Virus record (IMG/VR): IMGVR_UViG_3300042291_001568
Coordinates: 32,001-96,000 of that record
Strand: one strand, 5' to 3'
Length of the DNA: 64,000 nt
DNA from: a virus
The notes under the pieces are model-generated. The model was not told the DNA's origin and searched no databases. It saw only the letters and a program-made list of their open reading frames with translations. Shown in pieces: positions 4,692 to 36,743 of this stretch. Within the stretch, counting starts at the first letter, position 1. Every line of letters begins with the position of its first letter. The translations under genes and the position numbers were made by a program.

Positions 4692-4871
4692 ATGCTAAAA
4701 AGTAGACACATCAGAAACACACGAGCGGCCGAGCGTAGACTTTACGCAATCGTCGCAAAAGCAAATGAGCTAAAAGCAGAGTCAGAAGAAGTCCGTGAGT
4801 ACCTGCGGGAAAACCATGAGTCAATTGAAGCAACATTGAAAGCGTTTGACGTAGCGGGTATTCGCTACTAA
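4692..4871 (+). CDS. small helical hypothetical protein (59 aa)
   Basis: Manually translated MLKSRHIRNTRAAERRLYAIV...; follows promoter 4644; its stop abuts the thyX ATG. Confidence 0.7.
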   Translation: MLKSRHIRNTRAAERRLYAIVAKANELKAESEEVREYLRENHESIEATLKAFDVAGIRY

Positions 4872-7961: not shown

Positions 7962-8207
7962 ATGAACGACGAAAATGACCTGATGAGTTGGAGAGACAAA
8001 GCTGCATGCATTGGTCGCCAAGAACTATTCTTTGAAGATCACAAAAGTACTACGGTGCGAAAGGCAAAAAGCGTATGCGCTACCTGTGCGGTGATTGACA
8101 ACTGTAGAGAGTACGCACTCGTCCATACTGAGTTTGGAGTCTGGGGCGGAATGACTGCAAACGAAAGGCGACGTATGTTGCGGGTACGCCGTAGGCAGCA
8201 AAAGTAG
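7962..8207 (+). CDS. whiB: WhiB-family Fe-S transcription factor
   Basis: W...AAC...LFF...AKSVCATC.V...C..YAL...FGVWGGMT..ER: four Cys plus GVWGG. Confidence 0.93.
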   Translation: MNDENDLMSWRDKAACIGRQELFFEDHKSTTVRKAKSVCATCAVIDNCREYALVHTEFGVWGGMTANERRRMLRVRRRQQK

Positions 8208-19376: not shown

Positions 19377-20444
19377 GTGAACACGAACTGTCAGTCATGT
19401 GACATAGCATGCGTTTGCACAGCAGGTGCATGTGTTTGTATGCCAGAATGCACGTGCGGTTGCCGCGACGTGACTGGCGTGATTGTAATAACTGACGCCG
19501 CTGACGGATACACAAATGGTGGAATGCGTAGTGGCAAATACGTCATACCAGAAGAGAGCGAACTTGCAGATGCTCTCATTGAGATAACGCAAAGGTACGG
19601 CAAGTTCAATAGCGATGACACTGGTGTCTGGGCTGGATACACGCCAGGCGCGCAAAACGAATTAGCCAGCATCGGCGTTAAGTGCGGCAACTGCATTCTA
19701 TATGAAGGCGGCACTTCTTGTAAAATAATTGAAGCGCAAGTCGAGCCAGACGGGTATTGCCGTTTTGCGCTTATCCCAGATGGGACGGTAACCGCTGCAG
19801 CGTCTAAGCCCGCACCGAAAAAAGATCGCATACGTGGATCAGATACAAATAAAAAAGGATCTGCATCTGGCGGTAAAAAAATAGTTTTTTCTGACAAAGT
19901 AGAAAAGGCTTTATCAAACAAAGTAGAAGAGCATAATAAAAAAGCGTCTGAAGGAAGAAAAGCTACTCTTTCAATGCTCAAGGCAGTTTATCGCCGAGGC
20001 GCCGGTGCATTTTCAAGTTCGCACAGGCCAGGAGTTGGCCGTGACCAATGGGCAATGGCTCGCGTTAATGCGTATCTTCGTCTGCTAAGGACTGGCCGAC
20101 CAGCCAATCCAAACTACAAACAAGATAATGACCTTCTTCCTGCTAAGCATCCTAAGTCGTCGAGAAAAGATTTAGCGATTACAGCATCGGCAGCTGCAAG
20201 TGCTGAATTGATTGTTCACATAGAAAGTAAAGATGCGTACATGTCACCTGAGCATGCGATATTGCGCTTTACAGAATTCTCAGGACTAAACTACGACTCA
20301 GTTCCTATTTTTCGCGCAGCTTGGATGCGCGCTGTAGCTGCTAATGAAGATCCGTACGAAAGAACATCACAGTTGGCAATAACAATGTACAATAGTAAAG
20401 ACGCAGATCTGCTACCACGCAAAAAGACAGGCGATAAAAAATGA
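19377..20444 (+). CDS. head-module protein with Cys-rich N-terminus, HiPIP-like Cys motif and an AVYRRG..A...HRPG..QWAMARVN domain
   Basis: CQSCDIACVCTAGACVCMPECTCGC; KCGNC.LY...C......PDGYC; DNDLLPAKHP. Confidence 0.75.
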   Translation: MNTNCQSCDIACVCTAGACVCMPECTCGCRDVTGVIVITDAADGYTNGGMRSGKYVIPEESELADALIEITQRYGKFNSDDTGVWAGYTPGAQNELASIGVKCGNCILYEGGTSCKIIEAQVEPDGYCRFALIPDGTVTAAASKPAPKKDRIRGSDTNKKGSASGGKKIVFSDKVEKALSNKVEEHNKKASEGRKATLSMLKAVYRRGAGAFSSSHRPGVGRDQWAMARVNAYLRLLRTGRPANPNYKQDNDLLPAKHPKSSRKDLAITASAAASAELIVHIESKDAYMSPEHAILRFTEFSGLNYDSVPIFRAAWMRAVAANEDPYERTSQLAITMYNSKDADLLPRKKTGDKK

Positions 20445-23400
20445 GCAACTTGCATAATGGATCTAAATTACGCAAAAAAGATGTACACAGCATTCGTGAG
20501 GCAATTCTCTCGATGGTACAAGAAGCGAACCTTCGCACTCTTCCTGAGCGTAGGGTGTCTGACAAAGCGGCTATCACTGTTGCTAACAGGGATCTTGAAA
20601 AGACAAAAAACGCAAGTGTAGCAAAGCGCGAGTTTTCCGCGCTTCGAGCAGTTGGCTCGTTTATCTCTCTTGCAACGATTAACAAGGTAACTGAAGCATC
20701 GCTGCAAAATAGTGATCTATTGGCTATCGGACATCCTTTCTCAACAAAAGCACACAGCATGACCGCAGCTTCGCTGCGCAACGAGCGCGCTAAGTGGATT
20801 GCAGCTGACGAATACATCGACAGCTCAATACGCTCTTTGGTTATTAAAGCTCATGGATATGAAGAAAATTCAATGGAGCGAGCACATGCTTTTGCACGAC
20901 TCGCTGCAATGGGACCAGGATTCGTGCCAATCACTGCATCGATTGATCTCAATACTGCTACATCCGCGTACACCGAGTTCGTATTTGGCCTTGGCCTTGG
21001 CGGCAACTCAGATATGGCTAGAAGGCTTAGGGCGAAAATGCAACGCCGTGACCGCCTTGGACGTTTTGCATTTATGGGCGGTGGATTCTCGTTTAGCTTC
21101 CGCAGCAAAGATGGCAGGTTTAGCAAAGTATCTGGCCGTGTAGTTGGCGCATCTGGCGATCAAGATAGCATCGACATTGAAGTAAAGAATCATCCAAGAC
21201 TCGCTGACGGTATTTATGCTATGCCGTCATCTAGAGGTACCGCAGTTAGAGCCATTCTTGATGATGAAATCATTAAAGATCTGCCACAGGCTGACATTGA
21301 TATAGCAGCAGATGATGTATTTGTCGACGAAGCAAGTCTTACGCGAATGATGGCTCCGACTGGCTGGACCACAGAAGAATCGTCAACTCAAGGTGGCAAA
21401 GCAGTCAGCTGGGTTCACAAGAGTGAAGACGGTTACGAGGTCTATGACTCACCAGGCGATCCTTTCGGTCGCTTTCAATTGCGCAGAGAAAAAGGCAATG
21501 GCGCAAGACAACCTTTTCCAAAAGTTAAGTCATGGGCAGACGTTCAAAAGCAAGCAATTTCAGACCAAGATCTTTACAAAGACTATCTTGAAAAAGAGCA
21601 AATCAATCAAGATAAAAACAAAGCGTTTGATGAAGCAGCAAAGTCTGGTGAAGGCCCTCCTAGTAAGGCGCTTCCCGGCCGAGCTTGGGTCAAGCATGAA
21701 AACGGACAATGGTATGAGCGCGAGCTTGGTAGAAACTATGACGTTGCAGACGAAGAACTTCAGAAAATAGCTAAAGAAGCTACTGGACCATACCTCCCAC
21801 CGAAAGACAACGACTTCGGTAAAAAATACAAAACCTCAACAGGTAAGTGGAAAGAATGGGACGAAGGCAGTGATGAGTCTTGGCAGTACAAGCAGGATTA
21901 TCAAAAGCGTCTGAACGGTGAATACTCAAAACTTAAGCGTCTGCAAGAAGCGCAAAAGGCTGGACTGTTTGATCCAAAGTCAGACATCGCTACTGTGCGC
22001 GACATCAATGGCGACAGCTCAGTAGGCGAGCAACTCCGTAGCGCTATCACCGATACTGCGGCAGTGCGGTTTAACTATGATGGAAAATACGATGTTCAGT
22101 TCACTCCGAAAAGCTCGTATGTAAACAAAAAAACTGGCAAAACAAACTTTGTTGGTTTAGACACTAAAGGCGTACAACGCACGTATGCTGCTGACAAAAT
22201 TGCTCCACCAAAGTCGGCTGCAAAAACAGAAGTAAAAGCAACAATTCCAGATGCACCAGAAGCTCCACCTGTAGACACAACACCAGATGTTGTTGATCTC
22301 AAAGCTGCAATTGAAGGAATGAAACTTGGCGAAACTAAAGAATACGTTGCAGGTCTCGCAGCTAAAAAACAAAAAGTACGATTCAACTACAGCGGCTCAG
22401 AGCGGGTCGTTGAGCCGATTGAAGTATGGGTCAATGGCCAGACAGGCCGAATCAACCTACGCGCCATTGACAAAGACGTAAAGAAGAACTTTAGCTTTGA
22501 CAAGATTGAAGCACCTAAGCCTTCAGAGCGCGACATCGCACGTGACCAGCGCAACGCGGACCGCGTAGACGAAAACATCAACAACCCAGACAACTGGGAA
22601 CTAAAGCCAGTGGGGTACCCCGCCACGCGAAGTGAGTGGAACTACATTGGCCCACGGCCACGGTCCGAGGACAGCGTTGGTCCTTACATTTCGCCACCAC
22701 AGTCTGTTCTTGACAAGTATGCTAAAGACTTGTTTGGCCCTAAAGACGGCGGCCCTAACGTAGACGAAACTGACACAAGCACAGACTTCCCGATGAGTCC
22801 AGAAGAGCGTGCAGCAGCTAAGGCCCGACCTAGCGAGCGCGTGACAAATCTTGACGGACTAAAAGGCGATGAGCTTACAGCAGCCATTGATAAAGCAATA
22901 GCAGACAAAAAGCCACTTAAGTTTACATACCACGAAAAAGAGCGCCTGGTTCGCCCACTCGAAGTATGGACAAATCCAAAAACTGGAAAAGTCAACTTGC
23001 GTGCTGTTGAGGCCGATGCCGATACTGATAAGAACTTTACACTTGAAAAAATTGGCAAACCAGTTGATGAGAAAATCAAACAAATTGATGCCGATGACAT
23101 TATCAACATGCCACAAGAGCAGCTCGATGACGTTGTCGATGCGCTGTGGCCAGCAGCGGCTCCTTCACAGCAGGTAGCGCCAGAAGCAACAGGCCGTCGT
23201 ATTGTTGATGCATCAAGCAGCACTGCAGTTGAGCGCGTTGAATACGACCCAGCTACAAAAGAATTGTTCATTCAATTCAAGTCATCAAAAGATGGAAAGG
23301 GTGGTGGCGTTTACAAGTACAGCGACGTTGCTCCCGAGTTTGTAGACAGACTTGAAAGCGGATCAATTGGAAAAATGATTCCAGAACTCAAGAAGAATAA

Positions 23401-26400
23401 CTCTTCTGAGAAACTAGATGAATTCCCAGCAGGCGGAAGCGGAGGCCCAGGCGAGCCACCAGCAGGCGGCCCAGTCGTACCGGGGAACACCGGTGACGAT
23501 GCTGTTGATAAACTGCGCCAAGCACAGGCGCTCATCGCCGAAATGGAAGACTCGGGCGCGTTTGATGCTGCAAAAGTAGATGACGCAATAAAGCTTGTCA
23601 ATAGCGCATCAAGTGATTTTGATTCTTTCGTAAAGTCAAAGGATGCTGTCAACCAAGGCAACGCTGAAGGTCAAATTAAGAATCTTTTAGAAGAACTCGA
23701 CGATCTTAAGTCTAGAGAAGATGTTGATCTTGCTCCTAATTTTGATGACTATATTCTTGACGTTGAACTCGACGTCATAAGATTCGGCGAGTCAGACGAT
23801 GACGGCCCAGGCGAGCCACCAACAGGAGGACCATCAGCAGGCACCCCAGGTGACGATGCTGTTGATAAACTGCGCCAAGCACAGGCGCTCATCGCCGACT
23901 TGGAAGACTCAGGCAAGTACGATGCTAAAAAAGCAAATGCTGCAATAAAACTTGTCGAAGAAGCATCGAAAGATTTTGACTCGTTCTTGATGTCAAAGGA
24001 TGCTGTCAACCAAGGTGATGCTGAAGGTCAAATTAAGAATCTTTTAGAAGAACTTAAGGACCTTAGGAACAGAAAAGATGTTGATCTTGCTCCTAACTTC
24101 GATGACTACCTTCTCGATGTTGAGGCTGACATCATACGATTTAGCGAACTAGACGATGACGGCACGGGAGGCCCAGGTGCCCCAAGCGAGCCACCAGCAG
24201 GCGGCCCAGTCAATCCTGACAAGTACGAAACAGAGTACGGCTTTGACTATCCTAAAAAAGTTACCGACGAAAACGGCAACCAAGTCAGCCGCGTGATTGT
24301 CGATGTTGTCACAGAAGACATGTCGCTAGAAGAGATTGAAAGAGACTTCAAGAAAAAGTTCCCTGGTGGCGCGATGAAAGTTATTCGTCAACGCGGAACT
24401 AACGGTTGGCCCGAAGTGCAATACGACGTTCGTCCAGGAGACGAAGACAAACTCGGTAAGTGGTACAGCGGCGACCTTGAGCCTTATGACTATGCCGGTG
24501 ATGCCGACGCACTTGACGATGCCGATACTCGTAACTTGCCAACAGCTCAAGACTACATGGATGATCCAGCAGTTGCTGAAGATGCTGATGCCGGGTCGTT
24601 CTTTGATGAACCAATGTTTGATTCGCTATTTGATACGCCAGATGGCGCGTACAAACTTAATGTTTTCGAAGCGTATCGCCCAGTCGGAAGAACAACAGAA
24701 GACAGTGAAGATTTTACTGATGATCCAGACGTTCTTGCCACTAAGTTTGATGTAACAGAGCTTGGAAGAGCGCTGGCACAGGCAGTTCTTCCACTTACAA
24801 ATGACCAAGCCACAGGTTACGGAAACCTTCCATTTGAAAGCGGCGACGAGCCAGTAAAAGCTGAGGCGTTGTACGAGGCGCTTGGTGCAGCGAGAATGAC
24901 GCCAAACCTTGTTCTTGCTGGTCTATACGACTCGATGCTCGACCCAGAGCGTGGGCTAACTAATGTTGAGCGAATTACTGATGTTTCCCGCAATGACAGC
25001 TCGCTTGACAATGGCATTGATGATCCATTCACTGCTGAAATTCTTCCCGTGGCTGACCGCAGCGCAGAAATTGATGCTGCCATCGCGCTAAACGAAAAGA
25101 TTGGCTCGTATAGATACGCAAGCAACGGCGTTCAAAAAATGCGTGATCATTCTGAGAATAATCCTAAAATGCTGGATATTGCAAAGGACCTGACACAGCG
25201 AGAGGATGATGATGTTCAATTTGACACCATCAACCTTATTGACTTGTTAGATAAATATCTCCCGTGGGCTTCGAGTAGCGATGCCGATGAGCGCGACGCG
25301 TTTAGAGGCCTTTGGGGAATGATGATGTCGCTTGATGGAGGAAGTTCCATTGAAAGCGACTCACGATTTGAAGGATTTAGGCGAGAAATTCTTAGTTCGT
25401 TTGAACGAAGGAGTGGAAACCCAACTCTTGCGCAAGACGACTATGACGAGTTCGTTCTACAGTATGGTGGTTTTCCAGAGTTCGTAGCTGGCAAGAAAGC
25501 TATCGCCGATGGACAAGACGATCTGTCCGCTGAAACAAGCGCTGCAGCATTTTTTAGACTTGTCAAAGCAAGTTCCCGCCCGAATACTGCTCCATTGTGG
25601 AGGTCAATCGGCGTAGCGGAAGGCTCGAGCGAGTTTCAGAAGTACACAGTACCTGGATCACGATTTGACATGGACCCGCGTTCATTTACCGCGCAGTCGT
25701 TAGAAACTGGGACATTTGGCGACATAGCGTATTCGCCTACTGACAAAAAAATTGAACGAGTAATCTTTAAACTAGATCCGGGCGACGGAGATACTATTTC
25801 AGCTGAGTCCGTTTCTTGGTTCCCAGACGAGCGCGAAAATATTGCATTTGGTTCATTTGAAGTTATTGAAGTAACGCGGCAACCGTCGCAGCTTGGCAAG
25901 ACGCGTAATGACGATTACGTTGTCCGTATTCGTAAAGTTGATAGTGGCAATCAAACAGATGAGCAAAGCGCGCTGCCAGCGCCAGGGCAATTCTCCGAAG
26001 CAACGCAGCACGGAGACATTTCTGGTTGGACGCAGGTTGGCAATCAAGCAGGGTCTAACCCTGGAGGATTCTATGACGACCCAGCCGGGAACAGCTACTA
26101 CATTAAACAAGCAAGGTCACAGTCTCATGCGGACAATGAAGCTCTTGCATCGGCCTTCTACAAAGAGCTTGGAGTGCCAGCCGCTGAAGTTGGTTTTGGC
26201 GAAAAAGACGGAGTGTTGCATTTAGTCACTCCGTTGATTGATGGTGCTACACCAAACTTTGAAGAAAAAGTGTATGGCGGAGACAATGAATACGTCAAGA
26301 AAGTCCAAGACAACTTCGCAGTTGACGCGTGGCTTGCTAACTACGACATTGTTGGAATGGTCTATGACAACGTTGTTTCAGATGCAAACGGCGAGCCAGT

Positions 26401-29400
26401 AAGAGTTGATCCAGGCGGCGCGCTGATGTGGCGAGCTCAAGGCAAGCCAAAGCCATGGTTTGGTGACACTGTTGACGAGCTCGACAGCATGCGCGATCCA
26501 GATGTTAACGAGCAAGCAGCTAACGTATTTGGCACAATGAGCGATGATCAAATCAAAGCAAGCGCGCAAAAAGTTGCTAACCTTACGCCAGAAAGAATTG
26601 AAGAAATTATTGACTCGGTTGTCACAAGCCCAGACGATGCTGCACTTCTCAAGGAGCGGTTGCTAAACCGTCGTCAATACATTATGGATCGTTTTGGCTT
26701 TGAAGAGCCTACAGACGTTCTCGGTGAGCCACAATCAATTGCTTCAGAAATGGGCATTGCTTCTAAGGATCTTCAAGCAGGCGATGTCACAGTCGGCGAT
26801 TCATTCGTTATTGAGCGCATATTCACTGATGCAGATACTAAGAAAGGCAAGGTAAGCGTTCAAGGATACTTCCCTGGCCACGAGTCACAAGTTAAGCAGT
26901 GGAACGAAAACACAGTCATTATGGCAACACGAGGCGGACAGCTTCCTGCTAAAGGCGACGCACCAGCGTTACACAGACCAGTCGCGCCTGCCAAGCCGCA
27001 GCCTGCCGCTTTCACTGGCTCAATCGCAGATGAACTCTCTGGAGCTCAAAGCTGGGACGAAGTTCGCAGCATCCTACGTGGAAAAACAATCGTATTCTTT
27101 GACTACGAAACAACTGGATTCCCAGACAAGAAGACAGGCGACAAGAGCAGCAACCAACCAGCGCAACTTGGCGCAGTAAAAGTTGTTGATGGTCAGATAG
27201 TTGACCGTTTCAACTTGTTCATGAATCCAGAAGAGCCTCTTGGCGGTTGGTCGCGCGATAACCTTAAGGGCGCAGACGGCACTCCACTAACCGATGAGCA
27301 ACTTGCCACGGCACTGGACAAAGGCGAAGCGCATAGGCAGTTCATTGAATGGGCTGGCCAAGATGTGATTTTAGCAGCACACAACGCTCCATTTGACCTT
27401 GGCGTTATGAATGAAACGCTTGGCAAAAAAGGACTAGAGTACGCGCCAACCGGTGGAGTTATTGACACTCTCAAGCTTGCGCAAACAGTGATTGCATCAA
27501 AGAAAGCTGCAGCTCATCACGTAAACAAAGATCAAATTAAGACTGGAGACCCGAGTGGGCCAGATACCCACCGACTAGGCGACCTTGCATCTCACTTTGG
27601 CGTTGAACTTGGAGACGGGTGGCACACTGCAGATGCCGACTCTGAAGCAACGTCAAACGTCTTAAACTCTCTTATTGACTACGCAGCCGGAGCAGACGGT
27701 GGAGACACGTCGCTCCGCAGCGTTCTTGATGCGGGTGACAGCTACCAAAGCAACATGGCCGAGTTTGAGGCAAGAAGTGCACAGTTCAAAGATGAGCTAG
27801 CTAACTATGAAATACAAAAAGCAATTGCCGCAGCATGGAATTGTCGTGGTGGAACAGTTGCAAGTATCGCAGCTCTTATCGCAGCAATTGACGACCCAGA
27901 CTGCAACGTCCCGTCAATTGATGACCTTATCAAGGCAGCAACTCCTGGTGGTACAGACTTTGTAGATCCAGAAGGTCTTCATACAGGAGATTCTTCTACG
28001 GGAGACGCTTACACGCTAGAAGCAGAAGAAATCCCAGAGATGGACGGCGTTGAGCCTCCGTTTATTCCAGGAATTGAAGATCCAGACGATGAATTCCGTC
28101 CAAGCGATCAGCAGCAGGCAGTAGTTGAAGCTTTGTTTACTGGCGGCGACATTGTTATTCGCGCAGCCGCTGGCGCGGGCAAGACGAGCACACTAAAGAT
28201 CCTCGCACGACGACTACAAAAGCACAAGCCAAAAGAGCGCGTGGCGTACATTGCCTTTAACGCTACAGTTGCCGCTGAAGCTCGTGAATCGATGCCATCA
28301 AATGTTGAAGTACGCACCGCTGACTCTATTTCAGTCAACTGGACAAAACTGAACTTTCCAAAGTTGCATAAGAAAAAGGGCGCAAAAGATACGCTTTACA
28401 GCCCTAGTGACATAGCTACTCATCTTAAAGTTCCAGCGATGACTGGAATGGACAATAAAGGCAAGCCAGCAAAACTGCCAGTGTCAGAGTCTGTCAAAGA
28501 ATTGCGTAAGGCAATTTACCAATTTACCATCAGTGCTGATAAAGAAATAGGACCACAGCATTTTGACTCCGATGCAGTAGAAGCTTCAGACATACCAAAG
28601 CTTGTTGAGGCCGCAGAAAGATGGTGGGCAGACATCTTAAGCGAAAACGGAAAAATGCTGTTTAGCTTTCCGCACATGAAAAAGATGTGGGCGCTTTCAA
28701 ACCCAGATCTATCAGATGACAGTGGCGGGCTTAAGACTCCAGCAAGCGTTATTTTTATGGATGAAGCGCAAGACATTAACCCGGTCTTAGGCCGTGTTAT
28801 TGCAGCACAGACAGCCCAAAAAGTCTACGTTGGCGACGAAAACCAAGCTATCTACCAGTTCATGGGCGCAGAAGATGAGCTACAAAAAGTAACAGTTCAG
28901 CACGATCTTCCTCTTACTAAGTCATATCGTTTTGGCGAAGTAATCGCGAGAAACGCAAACAGGTATCTACGGTTTAAAGAACGGTTCCTCGGCGAAAAGA
29001 AGACTTTTGCTGTTGAGGGAGCAGGCAAGTTCCCTGGAGAAATAGTTGCGGCTGGGTCTATGAAAAACGCTCAAGCTGTGCTTGTTCGTTCAAACGCTGG
29101 CGCATTTAGAGAAGTGCGCACTGAACTTTTAAACGACAGAATAGTTGGAGTCACAAAAGGCTTCAAAGCAGACTTAGATAACTTCATCATAGCTGTTGAC
29201 TGGCTTCAAGCACCAGAGGCCACGCGGGGAAGTCGCCCAATGCGGGTTCCAGAGGAACTCCGCGGATACAAGAATTGGGCAGAAATTGTCGACGAAGCCG
29301 CTAAGGAAGGCGACAGCGACTTTAGCCGCAAGACACGAATCTTAGTTGACGACGTTGAACAACTTGGACTCGAAGAACTTAAGTCATTGGCCAGCCGCGT

Positions 29401-32400
29401 CAAAGTACTTAAAGGCAAAGTCAATACAAAAGTTGTCGATGACGGCTCTCTTCCTGATCTTCCAGACGACCTGTCACCAGGCGTTGAAGGAGATGTTGGC
29501 CGTGACATTACTTTCTCAGTTGAAGAAGATGCAATTGTTCTTAGAGGAAGCACATACGGTGTAAAAGATCAAATAAAAACAGCCAATGGTGGTCCAGCAA
29601 AATATGACGGTGACCGCAAAGCTTGGATTATTCCAGCCAAAACAGACAAAGCTCGCCAAGCAGGACTTGAAAAACTTCAAAAAGTTCTTGCACCAGAAAC
29701 AGTCGCAGAGGCGTCATACGTAGACGTAGTTGTTTCATCAGTTCACCAAGCCAAAGGCGCCGAGTGGGACGAAGTTCGCATGGGCAACGACTTCTTTGGG
29801 CCACGAAAGCCGAAGAAGTCTGACGGCGGCGAAGATGCCGATTGGATTATGCCAACCCCAGTTGAGCTCAACCTCGCGTACGTTGGCGTTACTCGAGCCA
29901 AGAAAACTCTTGACCCTGGCTCACTCAATTGGATTGATAGTTGGGTAAAATCAGATGACCCAGAAATTATGGGACTTGTTGACGGCGTGGTTGTTGCACC
30001 AGAAGCACCAGAAGCACCAGAAGCACCTACAGCAGCAAGTGAAGATGATTCAAGTGCGCCAACAACTTCTCCTGATGTTGACGATGAAGTAGCTGAAACT
30101 GCTGAAACAATAGAAAGTGTTGGAGAAGCTGTTGAAGGAACTAACGATCCATTTGGGCCTGGCGGTGAAGCGCCGTCAGCAGAGCAGCAGGCAAAAGATT
30201 TAGAAGATTCATTTAACGAGTTAAGCGACTATGCGGATTCACTTACTGATCCAGAAGGCGAAAACAACCTTAAGACAGGCGCAAAGAATAAAGTAAAGAA
30301 AGCGCAAAAAGATCTAAAGCAACTTCAAAAAGATCTTGAGGATGGAAGCATTACGCAAGCAGAGGCTACAACCAAGCTTCAGCAAATGATTGCTGAGTTC
30401 CCAGATAGCGACTCAAATACTGAAGAAGCTCTTGACATGTGGACTTACCGGCAGACAATGATAGATCTCGAATCTGTGCTTACGGGAGAGCGCTATATGC
30501 GCCCGACTGGGAAAGGACTTCCACCTAGAGATGCAGTTGACAGCAAAGGCCGACCAGTTGGCTTTTCAAAGAATGGAAAGTTTATTCGCCTCGGAACTCG
30601 AGTCCGCGACAAGTGGGGATTCTCTGGAACAGTTGATTCGTACAACGAAAACGACTGGATTAACGTCAATGTTAGATATGACATTGATCCACGAGATCCT
30701 GCCAAGGTAAAGAAAGGCAAGTGGGGTCCAGGAGTTGCGCGAGTCTCTAAGAATAGCCGCACTCTTACCGTCATCGAGCCCGGCGACCGTGAACCATGGA
30801 TTGACAACGGAAGCGTTCCTGAAAACAAAAAGCCAAAGCAAATAGAAGAGCAAACTAGAATTCATCTAGACATGCTCGAAAAACGTGGTGAAACCGCGTG
30901 GGACGGCTCCGAAAAAGATAGACAAGAGCCAGGCGGCGACCTCCCAAAAGCTGAGGCCCCGCAAGGGGCTACCGAGGCTCCTGAAGAAAGCAAAGCATCA
31001 AAAGCAGAATTCATAAAAAATTCTGACTTTGTTGACGTACTCGCAGAGTACTACACCACGGCTAAACAAGCGTTCAATAAAGGCACACTTACTAAAAAAG
31101 ATTGGGACAGAGTACAGTCTTATTTTGGCTCGGATTCAATAGCCGTTAACAACTTTTTACGTAGTGGGAAGCGGCTGTGGCTTACCAATGACAAAGATAC
31201 TATTGAAAACGTAATCAAATCTATTGACGATATTTTCGATGTTGCTGGTGTTGAATTGCCAGGAAATGTAATCGTATTCCGAGGCATTTACGATGCAGAT
31301 AAGCTCTTCCCAGATGGCGTAAAACCTGGCGACGTGTTTGACGATCTTGGGTACTCTTCTACAAGCATTAAATCTGATGTTGCACGGACCTTTACCAACA
31401 CTGATGAAACAGCAACAGTCTTAGCAATAACTGTTCCGAGCGGAACAAAAATGCTAGCAAACAATACAGCTATTCAGGCTGGTCAACAGAAGAAGGAAAA
31501 AGAGATTTTGCTGCCAAGAGGATTGACATTTAAGGTCACTTCTGTTACCGAGCGCACTAAGCCGAATAAAGCATATTCATTTTTGCCTGAAACGTACAGA
31601 GAAATAGCAGTTGAAATTGTCAGCACTCCTAACGCAAAAGCACCTAAAGCAGAAGAAATACCAGCACCTCCACCATGGAATCCTGACGTAGACGCACCGG
31701 AAGAAACAGCACCCACAGTTGCCAATGCAAAACCAAGCGTCGAGCTTGCAGCTGCTGCTGACGATGCGCGCGTATCATTAGATGCGTACTTTGATGAGAG
31801 CTTTGACAAGGACGATGTTGAGCAGGCAACTAATAGTTTTTCCTTAAAAAAGACTAGCCACGGACAAGCAGCAGACGCAGTCGTTTACCGCAAAGGCGCT
31901 GACGGTTTTGAAGTACTAATGATTTCAAGAGAGTACGGTCCGTTCCGTGGAGCAATGGCTTTGCCTGGTGGATTTAGAGACGGCGAAGAGTCATTCGCTG
32001 ACACAGCGGATAGGGAAATGGCCGAAGAAGTCGGCATAGTAGCCGCAGACGCGATCAAGCGCACTGACCTCGGCACAGTTCTTGACTCACCAGATTGGGA
32101 CCCACGTTTTGTAAAAGGAATGAGCGTAGGAGCTGTGGCGTATGAAGTCGATGGCGACAAGGTAGAAGTGACAGCAGGCGACGACGCTACTGGTGCTGTC
32201 TGGATCCCGGTACTGGATCTTGCCAATGGAAAATACCCTATCGCATTCGGGCACGCTACGTGGCTTGCAGAAGCTTTTAGAGACAATCGAAAGTACAATC
32301 GTAAGTTTGAAATAATAAAGCAAGCATCTAAAGAACGCAATACGCGATTGATTGAAAAAATCAATGCTGTCCGTTCTGATCTTAACGAACCGGTGTTCGA

Positions 32401-35400
32401 GCAATACGGACCAAAAGCACCAGATTGGGTACCAGAAGGGCCAGGAAGATGGCGTGGCGCAGCCTTGACAGTAGACAGCGATGGTGTCACTATCGCCAAT
32501 GGTACAGTGTTTGATGACGTTGAAAAACTCAAAAATGGATCATTGAAACCACCAGTGCTTCCATTCTTTGCCCCAATGGGGAGCGAAGATGCGAAGGACG
32601 GCGACGGATACTACTTTGCTAAATCTGGCAAGCGCTATTGGGGTCGCTGGGGTGCTGAAGGAGTCTTATTGCGCAAGCAAGGTGCTGGCGGCGAGGTGCA
32701 GTACCTACTTGGAAAGCGCGCAGATTGGATTTCATCTGGAGGTGGTAAGTGGGCTTATCCAGGCGGTGCGCACGGGACACAGTTCAACGCCGAGCGCGGT
32801 GGGACTACGGGAAGAGCTGAAATACTAGAAGAACTTGGTGTTGAATTGTCGCATCCACTAGTCAAAGGCAGAGAAACAACTGCGCTTACTTATGAAAATC
32901 CAATAGAACCTGATTGGACGTACAGAACAGTTATTATTGATGCATCAGATGACAACGTTAAGCAAGTACAGATTAGCGATAATGAAACCTCAGAAGTTGG
33001 CTGGTTCACGGCTGACCAAATAAAGGAAATGAATAGCCAAGGAATGCTTCATCCGTCGCTTAATAACAACATTGAAGAAATCTTAAAGCTGTCAGAAAAA
33101 ACACCAGTTGAAAAGCCAGTTAGAGACTGGAGTGGCCTAGACATAGAAAAAATGGAAACTCTACCTAGTGGCTTAGCTTCCAAAAAAGGCATATCAACAT
33201 TAGATGAATACTTTGAAGCTGAAGAAGCCTTTTATAGCCTCATTGCATTAGACCGAGAGTTCGATGCGGGGCAACTTGCGGCGATGATTACGCAATCTCT
33301 AGAGTCAAGTAATGCTAAAAAATCAATGCTTGATAGGTGGGAAAAAGATCACTCTATGTCGGCATCACTAGAAGATCAACTAACCGACTACATAGATAGC
33401 TCTGACAAAATCGGCAACTCACCTATTGCCCGTTGGTTTGAAACAGTAGACTCTGACGCGATCGATCAAAGACAACTCCAAATAGAAGCTGGGTACGAAA
33501 AATACTCGGGACTTGGTAAGATAATTGAAAGAACAGGCAGACCTAGAGTTATTCCAGACGTTGAACAAGACTTTACCAAGTCAAATTTTGCAGAAATTCC
33601 AAGTCTTATGGCTGCTGCTCAGGCTGTCGTAAACAAGAAGCGCGCAAGCGGAAGTCAAGAGGTTGCAATATCTGCGATGGTTGATAGCGGTGATATTGAA
33701 GATCTGGAAGTACGCGCATCAACAGTTGTAGACGAAAATGGAGAAAGAAAACTGCGACTGCGGTACACGCTTACCTCGTGGGCTGGTGTCGCTTTTGGCA
33801 ATCGTGTTGCTAAAGATCCTGACTATAGAAGAGATGTAGTGAAAATGCCAAGTTCTTTTCTGAATAGCAATAAAGACATTGTTCTAGACAGCGGCACTGC
33901 TGTGTGGCAATTTGATGAAGGAGTTTCCTATGTGTGGGATTCAGAAGACCTAGGTACCGTAGAAGATCAAAAAAGACCATTTACAATTACTTTTGTCCAA
34001 GCGTCTGACGACCCAAATCAAGAAGAACTATATCTGAGCACCAGTGCTCGTGCACCAAACGCTCTTCATAACCAAGTTGTCATTGATCTTCCGTTGGATG
34101 CGACAAATGCTGAAATAACAGATGCGCTAGGACTAGGCGGAGTGCGAGATCCGAGACCGACAACCCAAAAAGACCTAGAAATTGCGGTAGAAAATAGATT
34201 TCTTAGCCTTTTTGGAAAAATGACAGATGCAACTCAAAACGCTGAGTCGCAGGGGAAAAGACAAAGAATGCTAGACACGATTAAAGCTGACTGGGGCGTG
34301 TCGCCTAGCGATGTAACTGTGTCAGTGAGCTCTACTGGCCATATTGAGTACCGTATTCCAGAGGATGTTGCAATAGAAATAGAAAAGTCAACAGGTGTCA
34401 AGTACATGAACCACAGCATATTCACTTCCGCGTATATAAAAGATTATGAAAAACAAAACGAAAAAAAGCCAGGCTACATTGACTACCATAGCATGACTCC
34501 ACGTCAAAAAGCTGATGTAATTGCTGAAGGTCTTATGAAGTTGATAGAAGCCGGCGGACTTATGTCTACAGTCAGCCGTTATCAAGAAGGTCGGCAGTTT
34601 TTTGGAATGTCTTCTAACGAGGATATGGGCACTGGCGGCGCCGACTATGTATTCCTTACACCAGCAGATGACTTCGTGGGCTCTATCGGAACTCCATTTA
34701 GAGAAGAAGACGCAGCCATAGCATTTAATGCACGAAATCTGCTCCAAAGAATAGATATATACGCGAACAGGGACGATAAGTATGGCGAAAGAAGAGAGTC
34801 GCAAGACATTATTAGCAACATTGGAGTGTACACGCACGAATTCATGACAAAACACGGCGCGTCTCTTGATGATGCTAAGCACATGTCAGTGTCGCGGTTA
34901 GTGCGTGAGTCTTTGCTAAAAAAGCTAGCTCAAAAGAATATCAGCAAAATTGGCGGAAGAGACGTGGAAGAAGTTATTGTTGAAACTGGATCAAAAAGAA
35001 CTCAGGACATCATACAAAGTAATTCTGCTGGCAAAGATAACATTTTATTATTTAATAATTATTTGGAAAGTATTGACGCTGAGCCAGTTAACTTTAACGA
35101 GTATGTTGCTACAATAGAAGCGGCCTCAACATCTCTTGAGGGCCCAAGCTCGTCGTACAACAAAAAAACTATAACGTACTACCCGGCACCTGAAGGATCA
35201 GTTGTACTAGCTACTAGGCACGCTACTAGCCCTAACATGCTGCTAAAAGACGGTGACATGTTGATCGTTCGGCACCCAGATGGGACACTTTGGCAGTACC
35301 CGGCAATTTCTACAGGTGACTATTCTTGGGGAAGTGAGCCGAACGTGATGACTGATAGCGGCCTGGCAGCAACTATAACGGAACTAAGACTGCCTGTTCC

Positions 35401-35992
35401 AGATGCACCAGACTGGACTAGCAAGCAGTACGTACCTCTTGGAGTTCAAAAATACCCGAAAGAAACACAGCAAATAGCAGCTATTGAAAGTATCAAAAAA
35501 GGATTAGCTGATAAAACGATATCTAAAAGTTCTGCTATAGCAAAACTAATTGAACTTGCAGGAATGCCGATAACGCTTGCTTCACGAGCTGCTGTAGTTA
35601 CAGCGTTGGATGGAATGAAAGACGTAACAGACCCTATGACGTCTGCTGGTCAGCAATTAGAAAACATTCCAGCAAATCTATCGTCATTCATCGAGCGCAT
35701 GGAAACTAATAACTACATCGCGTCTCCAGCAATTCTTGAAATGACTTCTGGAGAAGACATAGGATCAACTAGAGTAGTGTATTCTATAAGAAAAGAAGCA
35801 ATAAGCAACGGGCAAGGCGGAAAGCAAATAGCAGTCATGGCAATGACAGCACTAGGCGGAATGTACTTTCCATTAGATCTAAAAACGGGACTAATTTTTG
35901 ACACTGAAAAAAGTATTGGTATATTCTCAAGCCGTGGTATAGAGTATAAGATAAGAGGATTGAGCCCTTCCGAACAGCACAAGTTGCTGTGA
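20441..35992 (+). CDS. giant polyvalent protein (5183 aa): 3 WYL-like, KTSC, 2 ADP-ribosyltransferase, kinase-like, DEDDh exonuclease, UvrD-like helicase, 2 NUDIX
   Basis: One 15.5-kb ORF. Motifs: FDYETTG/HNAPFD/HTADAD; AAAGAGKT/DEAQD/VGDENQAIY/SYRF/HQAKG/AYVGVTRA; FRG/YSSTS/EKE; PGG..DGEES..DTADREMAEEVG. Confidence 0.9.
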   Translation: MSNLHNGSKLRKKDVHSIREAILSMVQEANLRTLPERRVSDKAAITVANRDLEKTKNASVAKREFSALRAVGSFISLATINKVTEASLQNSDLLAIGHPFSTKAHSMTAASLRNERAKWIAADEYIDSSIRSLVIKAHGYEENSMERAHAFARLAAMGPGFVPITASIDLNTATSAYTEFVFGLGLGGNSDMARRLRAKMQRRDRLGRFAFMGGGFSFSFRSKDGRFSKVSGRVVGASGDQDSIDIEVKNHPRLADGIYAMPSSRGTAVRAILDDEIIKDLPQADIDIAADDVFVDEASLTRMMAPTGWTTEESSTQGGKAVSWVHKSEDGYEVYDSPGDPFGRFQLRREKGNGARQPFPKVKSWADVQKQAISDQDLYKDYLEKEQINQDKNKAFDEAAKSGEGPPSKALPGRAWVKHENGQWYERELGRNYDVADEELQKIAKEATGPYLPPKDNDFGKKYKTSTGKWKEWDEGSDESWQYKQDYQKRLNGEYSKLKRLQEAQKAGLFDPKSDIATVRDINGDSSVGEQLRSAITDTAAVRFNYDGKYDVQFTPKSSYVNKKTGKTNFVGLDTKGVQRTYAADKIAPPKSAAKTEVKATIPDAPEAPPVDTTPDVVDLKAAIEGMKLGETKEYVAGLAAKKQKVRFNYSGSERVVEPIEVWVNGQTGRINLRAIDKDVKKNFSFDKIEAPKPSERDIARDQRNADRVDENINNPDNWELKPVGYPATRSEWNYIGPRPRSEDSVGPYISPPQSVLDKYAKDLFGPKDGGPNVDETDTSTDFPMSPEERAAAKARPSERVTNLDGLKGDELTAAIDKAIADKKPLKFTYHEKERLVRPLEVWTNPKTGKVNLRAVEADADTDKNFTLEKIGKPVDEKIKQIDADDIINMPQEQLDDVVDALWPAAAPSQQVAPEATGRRIVDASSSTAVERVEYDPATKELFIQFKSSKDGKGGGVYKYSDVAPEFVDRLESGSIGKMIPELKKNNSSEKLDEFPAGGSGGPGEPPAGGPVVPGNTGDDAVDKLRQAQALIAEMEDSGAFDAAKVDDAIKLVNSASSDFDSFVKSKDAVNQGNAEGQIKNLLEELDDLKSREDVDLAPNFDDYILDVELDVIRFGESDDDGPGEPPTGGPSAGTPGDDAVDKLRQAQALIADLEDSGKYDAKKANAAIKLVEEASKDFDSFLMSKDAVNQGDAEGQIKNLLEELKDLRNRKDVDLAPNFDDYLLDVEADIIRFSELDDDGTGGPGAPSEPPAGGPVNPDKYETEYGFDYPKKVTDENGNQVSRVIVDVVTEDMSLEEIERDFKKKFPGGAMKVIRQRGTNGWPEVQYDVRPGDEDKLGKWYSGDLEPYDYAGDADALDDADTRNLPTAQDYMDDPAVAEDADAGSFFDEPMFDSLFDTPDGAYKLNVFEAYRPVGRTTEDSEDFTDDPDVLATKFDVTELGRALAQAVLPLTNDQATGYGNLPFESGDEPVKAEALYEALGAARMTPNLVLAGLYDSMLDPERGLTNVERITDVSRNDSSLDNGIDDPFTAEILPVADRSAEIDAAIALNEKIGSYRYASNGVQKMRDHSENNPKMLDIAKDLTQREDDDVQFDTINLIDLLDKYLPWASSSDADERDAFRGLWGMMMSLDGGSSIESDSRFEGFRREILSSFERRSGNPTLAQDDYDEFVLQYGGFPEFVAGKKAIADGQDDLSAETSAAAFFRLVKASSRPNTAPLWRSIGVAEGSSEFQKYTVPGSRFDMDPRSFTAQSLETGTFGDIAYSPTDKKIERVIFKLDPGDGDTISAESVSWFPDERENIAFGSFEVIEVTRQPSQLGKTRNDDYVVRIRKVDSGNQTDEQSALPAPGQFSEATQHGDISGWTQVGNQAGSNPGGFYDDPAGNSYYIKQARSQSHADNEALASAFYKELGVPAAEVGFGEKDGVLHLVTPLIDGATPNFEEKVYGGDNEYVKKVQDNFAVDAWLANYDIVGMVYDNVVSDANGEPVRVDPGGALMWRAQGKPKPWFGDTVDELDSMRDPDVNEQAANVFGTMSDDQIKASAQKVANLTPERIEEIIDSVVTSPDDAALLKERLLNRRQYIMDRFGFEEPTDVLGEPQSIASEMGIASKDLQAGDVTVGDSFVIERIFTDADTKKGKVSVQGYFPGHESQVKQWNENTVIMATRGGQLPAKGDAPALHRPVAPAKPQPAAFTGSIADELSGAQSWDEVRSILRGKTIVFFDYETTGFPDKKTGDKSSNQPAQLGAVKVVDGQIVDRFNLFMNPEEPLGGWSRDNLKGADGTPLTDEQLATALDKGEAHRQFIEWAGQDVILAAHNAPFDLGVMNETLGKKGLEYAPTGGVIDTLKLAQTVIASKKAAAHHVNKDQIKTGDPSGPDTHRLGDLASHFGVELGDGWHTADADSEATSNVLNSLIDYAAGADGGDTSLRSVLDAGDSYQSNMAEFEARSAQFKDELANYEIQKAIAAAWNCRGGTVASIAALIAAIDDPDCNVPSIDDLIKAATPGGTDFVDPEGLHTGDSSTGDAYTLEAEEIPEMDGVEPPFIPGIEDPDDEFRPSDQQQAVVEALFTGGDIVIRAAAGAGKTSTLKILARRLQKHKPKERVAYIAFNATVAAEARESMPSNVEVRTADSISVNWTKLNFPKLHKKKGAKDTLYSPSDIATHLKVPAMTGMDNKGKPAKLPVSESVKELRKAIYQFTISADKEIGPQHFDSDAVEASDIPKLVEAAERWWADILSENGKMLFSFPHMKKMWALSNPDLSDDSGGLKTPASVIFMDEAQDINPVLGRVIAAQTAQKVYVGDENQAIYQFMGAEDELQKVTVQHDLPLTKSYRFGEVIARNANRYLRFKERFLGEKKTFAVEGAGKFPGEIVAAGSMKNAQAVLVRSNAGAFREVRTELLNDRIVGVTKGFKADLDNFIIAVDWLQAPEATRGSRPMRVPEELRGYKNWAEIVDEAAKEGDSDFSRKTRILVDDVEQLGLEELKSLASRVKVLKGKVNTKVVDDGSLPDLPDDLSPGVEGDVGRDITFSVEEDAIVLRGSTYGVKDQIKTANGGPAKYDGDRKAWIIPAKTDKARQAGLEKLQKVLAPETVAEASYVDVVVSSVHQAKGAEWDEVRMGNDFFGPRKPKKSDGGEDADWIMPTPVELNLAYVGVTRAKKTLDPGSLNWIDSWVKSDDPEIMGLVDGVVVAPEAPEAPEAPTAASEDDSSAPTTSPDVDDEVAETAETIESVGEAVEGTNDPFGPGGEAPSAEQQAKDLEDSFNELSDYADSLTDPEGENNLKTGAKNKVKKAQKDLKQLQKDLEDGSITQAEATTKLQQMIAEFPDSDSNTEEALDMWTYRQTMIDLESVLTGERYMRPTGKGLPPRDAVDSKGRPVGFSKNGKFIRLGTRVRDKWGFSGTVDSYNENDWINVNVRYDIDPRDPAKVKKGKWGPGVARVSKNSRTLTVIEPGDREPWIDNGSVPENKKPKQIEEQTRIHLDMLEKRGETAWDGSEKDRQEPGGDLPKAEAPQGATEAPEESKASKAEFIKNSDFVDVLAEYYTTAKQAFNKGTLTKKDWDRVQSYFGSDSIAVNNFLRSGKRLWLTNDKDTIENVIKSIDDIFDVAGVELPGNVIVFRGIYDADKLFPDGVKPGDVFDDLGYSSTSIKSDVARTFTNTDETATVLAITVPSGTKMLANNTAIQAGQQKKEKEILLPRGLTFKVTSVTERTKPNKAYSFLPETYREIAVEIVSTPNAKAPKAEEIPAPPPWNPDVDAPEETAPTVANAKPSVELAAAADDARVSLDAYFDESFDKDDVEQATNSFSLKKTSHGQAADAVVYRKGADGFEVLMISREYGPFRGAMALPGGFRDGEESFADTADREMAEEVGIVAADAIKRTDLGTVLDSPDWDPRFVKGMSVGAVAYEVDGDKVEVTAGDDATGAVWIPVLDLANGKYPIAFGHATWLAEAFRDNRKYNRKFEIIKQASKERNTRLIEKINAVRSDLNEPVFEQYGPKAPDWVPEGPGRWRGAALTVDSDGVTIANGTVFDDVEKLKNGSLKPPVLPFFAPMGSEDAKDGDGYYFAKSGKRYWGRWGAEGVLLRKQGAGGEVQYLLGKRADWISSGGGKWAYPGGAHGTQFNAERGGTTGRAEILEELGVELSHPLVKGRETTALTYENPIEPDWTYRTVIIDASDDNVKQVQISDNETSEVGWFTADQIKEMNSQGMLHPSLNNNIEEILKLSEKTPVEKPVRDWSGLDIEKMETLPSGLASKKGISTLDEYFEAEEAFYSLIALDREFDAGQLAAMITQSLESSNAKKSMLDRWEKDHSMSASLEDQLTDYIDSSDKIGNSPIARWFETVDSDAIDQRQLQIEAGYEKYSGLGKIIERTGRPRVIPDVEQDFTKSNFAEIPSLMAAAQAVVNKKRASGSQEVAISAMVDSGDIEDLEVRASTVVDENGERKLRLRYTLTSWAGVAFGNRVAKDPDYRRDVVKMPSSFLNSNKDIVLDSGTAVWQFDEGVSYVWDSEDLGTVEDQKRPFTITFVQASDDPNQEELYLSTSARAPNALHNQVVIDLPLDATNAEITDALGLGGVRDPRPTTQKDLEIAVENRFLSLFGKMTDATQNAESQGKRQRMLDTIKADWGVSPSDVTVSVSSTGHIEYRIPEDVAIEIEKSTGVKYMNHSIFTSAYIKDYEKQNEKKPGYIDYHSMTPRQKADVIAEGLMKLIEAGGLMSTVSRYQEGRQFFGMSSNEDMGTGGADYVFLTPADDFVGSIGTPFREEDAAIAFNARNLLQRIDIYANRDDKYGERRESQDIISNIGVYTHEFMTKHGASLDDAKHMSVSRLVRESLLKKLAQKNISKIGGRDVEEVIVETGSKRTQDIIQSNSAGKDNILLFNNYLESIDAEPVNFNEYVATIEAASTSLEGPSSSYNKKTITYYPAPEGSVVLATRHATSPNMLLKDGDMLIVRHPDGTLWQYPAISTGDYSWGSEPNVMTDSGLAATITELRLPVPDAPDWTSKQYVPLGVQKYPKETQQIAAIESIKKGLADKTISKSSAIAKLIELAGMPITLASRAAVVTALDGMKDVTDPMTSAGQQLENIPANLSSFIERMETNNYIASPAILEMTSGEDIGSTRVVYSIRKEAISNGQGGKQIAVMAMTALGGMYFPLDLKTGLIFDTEKSIGIFSSRGIEYKIRGLSPSEQHKLL

Positions 35993-36023: not shown

Positions 36024-36743
36024 ATGGTAGAGCAAAATAGTAAGCAAAAAACCAAGTGGCCTGAAGCGCTAAAAGAAGGCGACGTTTTGTACGCTATCAT
36101 GGGAGATGACGCTGTCGTCGAGTACCTAGTCTTTTCAAGCGTTGATAAGAAAATGACATACATTCGCGATAACGGAAATTGGACGCGAATTAGAGAAACT
36201 TTTTTTGAAGAAGTTGACGACCCTAGCTTAGTAAATGAGCCAGTTGATATTTCATTTATAGAAGAATTTGACAAAAAAGAAGCAAACGGCGAGCAAGCCG
36301 TGTTGTACGAAAAAGAAAACGCTGTCACTGCTGCGGCGCCAGACGCTTGCCCACCAGCGACACAGGATATTGGAATAAATCTAAAAAATCGCAAAAGAGC
36401 GATCAATAGAGCGGGGTACGGGCCATTAAATCCTGAAGAGCCAAATGAAGCTTTCTGGCAAAACAAAGCGTCGCTTTGGTCAATTAAGCCAGAAGAAGCT
36501 AAGACAAGTCTATGCGGTAACTGTGTAATGTTCACAGTTACTACTAAAATGAAAGAATGCATCGCTACAGGTATTTCACAGGGTGGATCTAGTTCTTCCG
36601 ACGCCTGGGACGCTATTGATGCTGCACAGCTTGGATATTGCGAAGCGTTTGACTTCAAATGCGCCGCCACGAGAACTTGTGATGCTTGGGTAACTGGCGG
36701 ACCAATTGATGATGCGAAAGGTACAAATAACAGCAATGATTAA
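36024..36743 (+). CDS. head-module protein with C-terminal Cys-rich domain
   Basis: CPPATQD...N.KNR...YGP.NP...CGNC..F...C...GYCE.FDFKCAATRTCDAW. Confidence 0.75.
   Translation: MVEQNSKQKTKWPEALKEGDVLYAIMGDDAVVEYLVFSSVDKKMTYIRDNGNWTRIRETFFEEVDDPSLVNEPVDISFIEEFDKKEANGEQAVLYEKENAVTAAAPDACPPATQDIGINLKNRKRAINRAGYGPLNPEEPNEAFWQNKASLWSIKPEEAKTSLCGNCVMFTVTTKMKECIATGISQGGSSSSDAWDAIDAAQLGYCEAFDFKCAATRTCDAWVTGGPIDDAKGTNNSND

Follow-up and report, generated by a model that had tools for sequence, protein, structure and literature searches.

A 5183-residue polyvalent protein encoded among the head genes of an uncultured actinobacterial phage: a probable capsid-loaded effector package

Why would a phage carry, in the midst of its head-assembly genes, one 15.5-kb reading frame coding for at least ten types of domain? 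The question is raised by a 64,000-nucleotide stretch of DNA (hereafter "the window"; bases 32001-96000 of the 116,822-bp IMG/VR record IMGVR_UViG_3300042291_001568) from an uncultured metagenomic virus, the record of which is 87% complete according to CheckV. The gene concerned, referred to here as the giant, runs from 20441 to 35992 on the plus strand, to which all coordinates given below for its parts refer, and encodes a chain of 5183 aa (567 kDa, pI 4.7). It is free of stop codons throughout and takes up 24% of the window and 13% of the virus record, bearing out a first-pass annotation that had singled out an uninterrupted open reading frame (ORF) of about a quarter of the window. Three WhiB-family genes in the record (3386-3586, 39989-40177, and 110195-110398) and the nearest named relatives, i.e., Actinomycetia phage DSL-LC01 followed by large phages of Microbacterium and Arthrobacter, suggest that the host is an actinobacterium; one WhiB gene lies inside the window at about 7989-8177. 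Our analysis identifies the giant as a polyvalent protein whose N-terminus is specific to its family and bears a candidate loading tag, not a singular oddity, and on balance we infer that it is an effector which is loaded into the capsid and ejected from it.

Domains were sought through Pfam, PHROGs, NCBIfam, and PDB sequence searches, a motif scan, and, for the first ADP-ribosyltransferase (ART1) and the kinase-like region, predicted folds; NCBIfam yielded no domains beyond those called by the other routes. The enzyme and sensor domains named in the first-pass annotation were upheld one and all. Toward the N-terminus, three WYL-like repeats (22058..23083; residues ~540-597, 644-701, and 824-881) score 27.7 bits against a Pfam cut-off of 21.8 and resemble each other with z values of 6-26 versus shuffles, followed by a KTSC domain (23216..23359; residues 926-973) at 32.2 bits against a cut-off of 25 (E 8.8e-08). 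Immediately beyond, Tandem Repeats Finder detects a duplicated 119-aa helical unit with GPGEPP linkers at its flanks (23444..24163; period 357 nt, 2.0 copies, 81% nucleotide matches, 73% aa identity), a recent event suggesting that the gene has grown through internal duplication as well as through domain gain.

Two further domains are without a Pfam match and were recognized through structure prediction, for which a 31-sequence alignment from related loci was used to model residues 1380-2110 with AlphaFold (mean pLDDT, the predicted local confidence, 85.9). ART1, of the R-S-ExE type (25187..25945; residues 1583-1835), resembles Tre1 (Z 9.3), Vis (8.4), and C2-I (8.1) by VIA over 154-170 residues, values that are modestly above background; the domain has the catalytic Arg and Glu-x-Glu of an ART, with R1721, E1797, and E1799 invariant in 17/17 relatives that have the domain and S1748 kept in 13/18. 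The adjoining atypical protein-kinase-like (PKL) domain (26006..26701; residues 1856-2087) is of the CtkA/CotH/PI4KII/HipA kind, its model matching CtkA with a Z of 15.3 over 207 residues (root-mean-square deviation 3.2) by VIA and with an E of 9.2e-06 by Foldseek, followed by CotH (13.8), PI4KII-alpha (13.1), and HipA (11.8). In the same 17/17 relatives the Gly-loop, K1889, E1900, D1962, N1967, D1969, D1976, N1977, and D1990 are invariant, and the domain thus has the Gly-rich loop, Lys, catalytic Asp/Asn, and metal-binding Asp characteristic of the PKL fold; moreover, two homologues of this domain (P0066 and P0075) match HipA_C directly.

The remaining enzymes are recognizable from profile matches. 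A DEDDh 3'-5' exonuclease of the DnaQ/PolC-exo type (27092..27661; residues 2218-2407) matches Pfam RNase_T (E 9e-15, 56 bits), with PolC in the PDB and NCBIfam in agreement, and has motifs Exo I-III (D2221/E2223, D2319, and H2395-x4-D2400). It is followed by a superfamily 1 (SF1) helicase of the UvrD/Rep type (28106..29911; residues 2556-3157), supported by Pfam UvrD-helicase, AAA_19, and UvrD_C, by phrog_1967 (E 3.7e-71), and by FBH1 (E 4e-19); motifs I, II (DEAQD), III, and VI are found, as are both RecA-like halves. The second ART (ART2; 31076..31582; residues 3546-3714) is of the VIP2/C3/Alt type, matching Pfam ADPrib_exo_Tox (E 1.4e-20, 73.9 bits versus a cut-off of 23.4) and Alt-like phrog_802 (E 8.7e-14), and it presents the R-S-E signature: a motif scan located an STS at 3639-3641 and an ExE (EKE) at 3686-3688, and the translation offers a candidate catalytic Arg within "VFRG". 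Two NUDIX hydrolases, of the ADP-ribose/NADH-pyrophosphatase type, come last: NUDIX1 (31862..32281; residues 3808-3947) has an exact canonical Nudix box at 3844-3866, its closest resemblance being to the ADP-ribose pyrophosphatase part of NadM-Nudix proteins, and the RenU-like NUDIX2 (32597..33058; residues 4053-4206; PDB 6uuf, E 5e-18) has a box that is a one-residue variant (RAEILEELG), both nevertheless being of NUDIX character. Degenerate active sites would have spoken against these domain calls; the catalytic residues of the enzyme domains are intact as read from the sequences. As for the proposed Pro/Glu linkers, eight Pro/Gly/Glu/Ala-rich segments separate the named regions, except that one of the eight (residues 2225-2245) sits inside the exonuclease call. 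Directly after the helicase, an Ala-Pro-Glu linker is encoded by a perfect 9-nt repeat, GCACCAGAA, in 3.6 copies (29996-30027).

Large tracts of the giant have no such match. A Pfam scan of nine unassigned segments at E<=5 gave nothing credible in residues 1-420, 1381-1700, 1691-1880, 1881-2110, 3161-3540, and 4211-5183, the last of these being the long C-terminus that had been described as uncharacterized. The N-terminal region and two of the conserved blocks are without a Pfam model. One, domain A (24605..25000; residues 1389-1520), is the part of the block spanning residues 1380-1700 in which its invariant and nearly invariant columns are concentrated, and is modeled with confidence. The other, C2 (33533..35008; residues 4365-4856), lies at or near the C-terminus of mid-size family members, ending within a few to ~130 residues of the end of the ORF in five of them (L029, L049, L051, L053, and L057), and has 60 invariant columns among seven sequences. 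No standalone homologues of the 1380-1700 block or of C2 were found. For C2, a PDB profile search and a Pfam scan of seven members gave no match, and hhalign comparisons with the ART1/kinase alignment and with an ART-PolyVal protein were negative; a language-model protein atlas returned only sub-threshold hits (0.81-0.89) to several ART-like families (OspC, DarT/PARP, ART-PolyVal, and Arr), treated here as a lead and not as evidence. The C3 tail (35018..35989; residues 4860-5183) occurs in 3 of the 150 relatives considered below.

An exhaustive HMMER search with residues 1-420 returned 355 representatives (at 50% clustering), 124 of which scored at E<=1e-30, and 363 IMG/VR contigs were found to encode a relative of this N-terminus; the family-defining match, to residues ~10-390, always stands at the N-terminus of the target protein. 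Lengths and domain contents were tallied for the best 150 of the 355 representatives, with sharing determined by BLASTP of the window domains. Within this set the median length is 2617 aa, with 15 proteins exceeding 4000 aa and five exceeding 5000 aa (5031, 5081, 5248, 5306, and 7004 aa). The N-terminus is present in 150/150 and the 1380-1700 block in 101/150, accompanied by a cargo that varies from one relative to the next: kinase in 51, C2 in 48, exonuclease in 45, ART1 in 35, WYL in 32, helicase in 24, NUDIX2 in 14, KTSC in 5, ART2 in 3, and NUDIX1 in 1. In this survey of relatives for variable domain content, as had been advised, related phages, judged by homology, keep the N-terminal region and the 1380-1700 block and vary the set of enzymes. 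At one extreme are complete forms of ~1900-2070 aa in which, of the domains of the window, only these two conserved parts are found; at the other, the 7004-aa relative has every domain of the present giant and more. The longest relatives arrange their shared domains in nearly the same order, including a 4732-aa protein (P0110) that is identical in two separate assemblies (ENA contigs) with the same neighbors and the same position in the locus. The first-pass annotation had held the size and domain combination to be the most unusual feature of the window; neither part of that claim is supported. Within its own family the giant does not stand out in size, as three of the best 150 relatives are longer (5248, 5306, and 7004 aa), and it is not unique in composition, for the family numbers hundreds of members and the domain order is almost unchanged in several of them. 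Literature searches brought up no paper describing this family.

What would tie this protein to the virion is, in the first place, the position of its gene. In 80/80 fetched IMG/VR loci, with complete giant ORFs of about 1900 to 2700 aa, the portal gene is followed by the giant, a DUF5824 gene being detected between them in 78/80, and the terminase lies upstream; a homologue of a 1559-aa protease/scaffold-like protein stands downstream in every fetched locus that extends past the giant, and most of these also encode a homologue of the small 239-aa ORF (p239) that follows the giant in the window. The placement of the giant within the head-assembly module, from portal to capsid protease, is hence corroborated both by PHROG matches of its neighbors and by gene order, and the fixed position after the portal strengthens the case for virion delivery, albeit indirectly.

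A second tie is a module within the conserved N-terminus. AlphaFold models residues 1-420 (pLDDT 80.6) as four parts, namely a helical portion (12-170), a low-confidence basic stretch (174-200), beta barrels (215-350), and a long helix (365-401). These correspond to an N-terminal helical domain (20474..20950; residues 12-170), which is the first part of the family-defining region, a candidate capsid-targeting module (20999..21271; residues 187-277) made up of a basic helix, a QRRDRxGRF motif, and an SH3-like barrel, and a second beta domain with the long helix (21320..21643; residues 294-401) that closes the conserved region. The motif of the basic stretch, roughly A-R-x-x-R-A-x-x-Q-R-R-D-R-x-G-R-F and more generally QxRDxxGRF, has a second copy in the 1559-aa protein, at residue ~378; it was also located in the DSL-LC01 counterparts of both proteins and N-terminally in gp77 and gp79 of Arthrobacter phage Mimi and in gp82 of Microbacterium phage Pumpernickel. 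Its pairing between a giant and a 1559-aa-type protein is therefore repeated in DSL-LC01 and Mimi, with gp82 alone being found by the scan in Pumpernickel, and it was seen in 8/12 IMG/VR loci that cover the motif region of the 1559-aa homologue. When the families of the two modules were compared with hhalign, residues 187-277 of the giant were paired with roughly residues 362-441 of the 1559-aa protein (DNA ~37789-38028) at 96.6% probability (E 6.4e-10, 80 columns); a plain hidden Markov model (HMM) of the 1559-aa module did not find the copy in the giant when run against its own genome, the relationship being visible in profile-profile comparison only. On this basis the module of the giant is, at the level of sequence profiles, homologous to that of the protease/scaffold-like protein.

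The module is also found on other proteins. Some relatives carry extra genes in the same interval whose products begin, or nearly begin, with the module and continue into cargo of differing kinds: a PI3/4-CotH-HipA-like kinase (L004), an ADPrib_exo_Tox ART (L044), or DUF3626 (DSL-LC01 and L068). Head-region proteins joining the module to DUF3626 were noted at L001:26106-27506 and L068:6636-11408, and the DSL-LC01 copy is labeled a "cytoplasmic protein" in its own annotation. We tentatively propose, with somewhat less than even confidence, that the module is a portable capsid-loading tag used across a large clade of actinobacterial phages, such that any protein carrying it would be taken up by the prohead and later ejected. 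If so, its carriers might range, in an equally tentative scheme, from the protease/scaffold protein through single-enzyme effectors to polyvalent chains of up to 7004 aa.

A third tie comes from the cargo itself. Among homologues of the kinase domain, 84 belong to multidomain proteins with partners that include Phage_Mu_F and Phage_min_cap2, and one has Phage_portal_3, Acb1, NUDIX, and ART as partners. Packaging and ejection of the giant are thus suggested because the same kinase domain is fused elsewhere to known portal-associated head proteins, and because ART2 is Alt-like and polyvalent proteins offer a precedent (PMC5512222). Two groups of these homologues deserve description in their own right. 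The metagenomic protein P0048 (1822 aa) combines Phage_portal_3, anti-CBASS Acb1, NUDIX, the same kinase-like domain, and an ADPrib_exo_Tox ART in one chain and is in effect a portal with an effector train attached. In P0010-P0017 (metagenomic, ~1500 aa) the kinase-like domain occurs in two tandem copies, and most of these proteins have a precomputed match to a DRAT-type ADP-ribosyltransferase, confirmed at the C-terminus of P0010.

Taken through the infection cycle, the proposed course of events would be as follows. The giant would be made alongside the head proteins, its translation coupled to that of the gene after the portal, and would be recruited into the procapsid through the N-terminal module that it has in common with the protease/scaffold-like protein; recruitment of this kind is proposed because a protein that must be inside the prohead bears the same module and because the module behaves as a tag on different cargo. 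The prohead protease may cut the chain at its flexible linkers, and the giant, whole or in pieces, would then be ejected with the DNA. Host proteins would be the substrates of both ARTs and of the kinase after entry, as they are for T4 Alt and T7 gp0.7, the HipA family of toxin kinases providing an analogy for the kinase activity; DNA ends or nucleic acids involved in defense would be the target of the exonuclease together with the helicase, and the NUDIX domains would hydrolyze nucleotides derived from ADP-ribose or NAD.

Several points weigh against this scheme. Pfam detects neither MuF nor LPD nor any other known domain for head incorporation in the giant; the N-terminal model gives no significant match with Foldseek against the PDB or BFVD, and across VIA only SH3/Tudor/KOW barrels at background level (Z 5-6.5). 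The identification of the 1559-aa protein as a protease/scaffold is annotation-based only, and the roles of the enzymes in the cell are assigned by family only. Size is a further difficulty: to our knowledge, a 567-kDa chain is larger than any known ejected phage protein, N4 virion RNA polymerase (vRNAP) being about 380 kDa, and it would need to be unfolded or cut in order to pass the tail. Virion delivery is for these reasons held here to be probable and no more.

Could the giant be packaged and yet serve the phage's own genome? It might be a pilot or DNA-end protein whose helicase and exonuclease deal with the incoming DNA, with the N-terminus, domain A, and C2 as structural parts of the head interior and host takeover having no part in it. 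Such a role would fit the observation that the most widely conserved regions are non-enzymatic or have no assigned function (N-terminus in 150/150, the 1380-1700 block in 101, and C2 in 48), set against ART2 in 3 and NUDIX1 in 1 of the best 150 relatives, as well as the reduction of minimal ~1900-2070-aa forms to the N-terminus and the 1380-1700 block and the retention of module and helicase in gp77 of the cultured relative Mimi. What makes it unlikely in our estimation, both as a general role and in this division of labor between enzymes and structural parts, is that two ARTs and a HipA/CtkA-like kinase have kept intact the conserved catalytic residues of toxins and effectors, that separate kinase and ART genes start with the same module, and that fusions of the kinase domain to MuF and portal proteins resemble those of effector cargo.

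Alternatively, the chain might never enter the capsid, acting as a late multi-enzyme protein of the cytoplasm. A version of this view can be drawn from the literature, where VIP2-like ARTs of freshwater actinophages have been read as a "Trojan horse" toxin, lethal to protists that graze on infected cells (PMC6802176), and the failure of Pfam to detect a known packaging domain in the giant would be in keeping with it. We consider it slightly less likely still than a role in genome delivery, given that neither a translocation (B) component nor a signal for secretion was noticed, that the ART is embedded in a chain alongside domains with bacterial-type targets (DnaQ-like exonuclease, UvrD helicase, and HipA-like kinase), that the gene is fixed between portal and protease/capsid genes in 80/80 loci, and that the module shared with the protease/scaffold-like protein and the match of ART2 to an Alt-like PHROG both look toward the virion. 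There is lastly the matter of whether so long a frame could be an artefact of assembly or annotation, with several genes fused by errors, a concern natural enough for an uncultured metagenomic virus record. This was rejected as having a negligible chance of being correct: more than 100 independent relatives of 2000-7004 aa start with the same domain, the longest of them keep the shared domains in nearly the same order, the 4732-aa relative is identical in two separate assemblies, and the frame is open over 15.5 kb with no excess of internal terminators or promoters.

Set beside known systems, the giant as a capsid-loaded effector has its closest parallel in the polyvalent proteins described by Iyer, Burroughs, Anand, de Souza, and Aravind in 2017, which are encoded among virion genes and thought to be packaged (PMC5512222). 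Like them, it joins numerous effector domains (ART, kinase, helicase, NUDIX, and others) in one long polypeptide (>2000 aa), with at least ten domain types where 2-15 distinct effector domains mark the class, and is encoded among late/virion genes, between portal and protease/capsid; variable domain content between relatives and predicted packaging and delivery with the DNA are common to both. Of the hallmark domains by which the class was recovered (Alt-type ART, MuF, DarA/B, ArdC-N, and LPDs), an Alt-like ART is present, whereas there is no Pfam match to MuF, LPD, ArdC-N, or ART-PolyVal, and none of the Pfam families from the 2017 work (LPDs, ART-PolyVal, PBECR, and MuF) matches the giant. 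The kinase clade of that study is found mainly in Verrucomicrobia-Chlamydia and Bacteroidetes (PMC5512222), in contrast to the CtkA/HipA/PI4K-like kinase of the giant in actinophage-type genomes, the two clades being set apart here by description only. Fusions of MuF/SPP1 gp7 to toxins (Phage_Mu_F, PF04233; Phage_min_cap2, PF06152) likewise are encoded just after the portal, have a head-associated N-terminal part followed by variable effectors as in the giant, and elsewhere carry the kinase domain of the giant with ART or NUDIX alongside. No MuF or min_cap2 match was found by Pfam at E<=5 in residues 1-420 of the giant or in the 355-aa protein encoded upstream; the candidate tag is instead the basic-helix/SH3-like module common to the giant and the protease/scaffold-like protein. 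Of the context suggested in the first-pass annotation, the polyvalent head-module reading is well supported, with no MuF component detected in the giant.

Phage T4 provides a simpler precedent in Alt, a packaged and injected ART (PMC5512222), to which ART2 is linked through PHROG 802. The T4 capsid-targeting sequence, a single tag that loads several proteins into the prohead, is a parallel to the module of the giant (PMC5512222), with the difference that the tag of T4 is a short peptide and the candidate tag proposed here a folded module of ~80-90 residues. Large capsid-carried enzymes delivered to the cell are known in P1 DarB and N4 vRNAP, the former containing a helicase and acting against restriction (PMC5512222); no sequence relationship of either to the giant was found, and the giant is larger, has far more activities, and contains a helicase of the SF1 UvrD type. 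Closer to the present phage, same-locus giants follow the portal in DSL-LC01 (3289 aa), Mimi (gp77, 2709 aa), and Pumpernickel (gp82, 2235 aa). The DSL-LC01 protein has the N-terminus (43%), residues 1380-2087 (46%), and C2 (30%) in common with the present giant; Mimi gp77, annotated "DNA helicase", shares the module and the helicase (35%) with it, and Pumpernickel gp82 the module. All three are shorter with fewer recognizable enzymes, the DSL-LC01 giant having no significant Pfam domain and Mimi gp77 the helicase only, and the one published account found of DSL-LC01 discusses none of the three. T4 Alt, at about 75 kDa, contains one enzyme domain, and its tag is a short N-terminal peptide that gp21 removes.

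The surroundings of the gene complete the picture. In the window, the order runs from the terminase large subunit (13323-14753) through a peptidoglycan-binding protein, the portal protein (17600..19357, plus strand; phrog_776, E 2e-104), and the 355-aa DUF5824 protein (19377..20444, plus strand) to the giant, and onward through the 239-aa ORF directly downstream (36024-36743), the 1559-aa protein (36706..41385, plus strand; phrog_18402, E 1e-57, and phrog_859), and the major capsid protein (41522..43369, plus strand; phrog_777) to the major tail protein. The stop codon of the DUF5824 gene overlaps the start of the giant (ATGA), suggesting translational coupling of the giant to the gene upstream. 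Promoter- and terminator-like sites within the giant ORF are no commoner than in shuffled sequence, and sigma-70-like sites overall are at chance level; the best such site of the region (35898-35925; 11/12 matches, extended -10 TG) falls within the giant ORF, in its final 100 nt, and thus precedes the 239-aa gene by ~100 nt. Both small flanking genes encode Cys-rich proteins, with the Cys residues lying N-terminally in the 355-aa protein and C-terminally in the 239-aa one; at the corresponding position DSL-LC01 has an ORF annotated as a high-potential iron-sulfur protein, and one relative (L093) has a ferritin-like gene between the portal and DUF5824 genes.

The 1559-aa protein has no Pfam or PDB sequence match, so that its designation as a protease depends on PHROG and SEA-PHAGES annotation: its C-terminal half matches the same PHROGs (859, 18402 "head maturation protease", and 29860) as Mimi gp80, annotated as a capsid maturation protease. 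It corresponds to Mimi gp79 and gp80 in fused form, is 44% identical to Pumpernickel gp84 over the full length, and has as its counterpart in DSL-LC01 three separate ORFs annotated "capsid maturation protease". The major capsid protein starts with a conserved helical segment followed by acidic, Glu/Ala/Pro-rich low complexity ahead of its conserved body, the two together taking up roughly the first 200 residues by our reading of the alignment consensus. This N-terminal region may be delta-like or make contact with the scaffold, and the basic module may have its partner there.

Phage proteins delivered along with the DNA act ahead of all phage gene expression and are thus prime candidates for switching off host defenses, and the giant, with two ARTs, a toxin-type kinase, an exonuclease, a helicase, and two NUDIX domains in one chain, is among the richest examples. 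It also bears on the published "Trojan horse" interpretation of VIP2-like ARTs in freshwater actinophages, since the occurrence of an ART within a head-module effector chain in this clade points to a bacterial target and not to a protist one. The shared module offers a concrete hypothesis for how such cargo is loaded, and cultured relatives, Mimi and Pumpernickel, exist. Were the portable-tag proposal to prove true, these would be the largest virion-delivered effector proteins known, and the tag itself would be a new counterpart of the T4 capsid-targeting sequence and of MuF.

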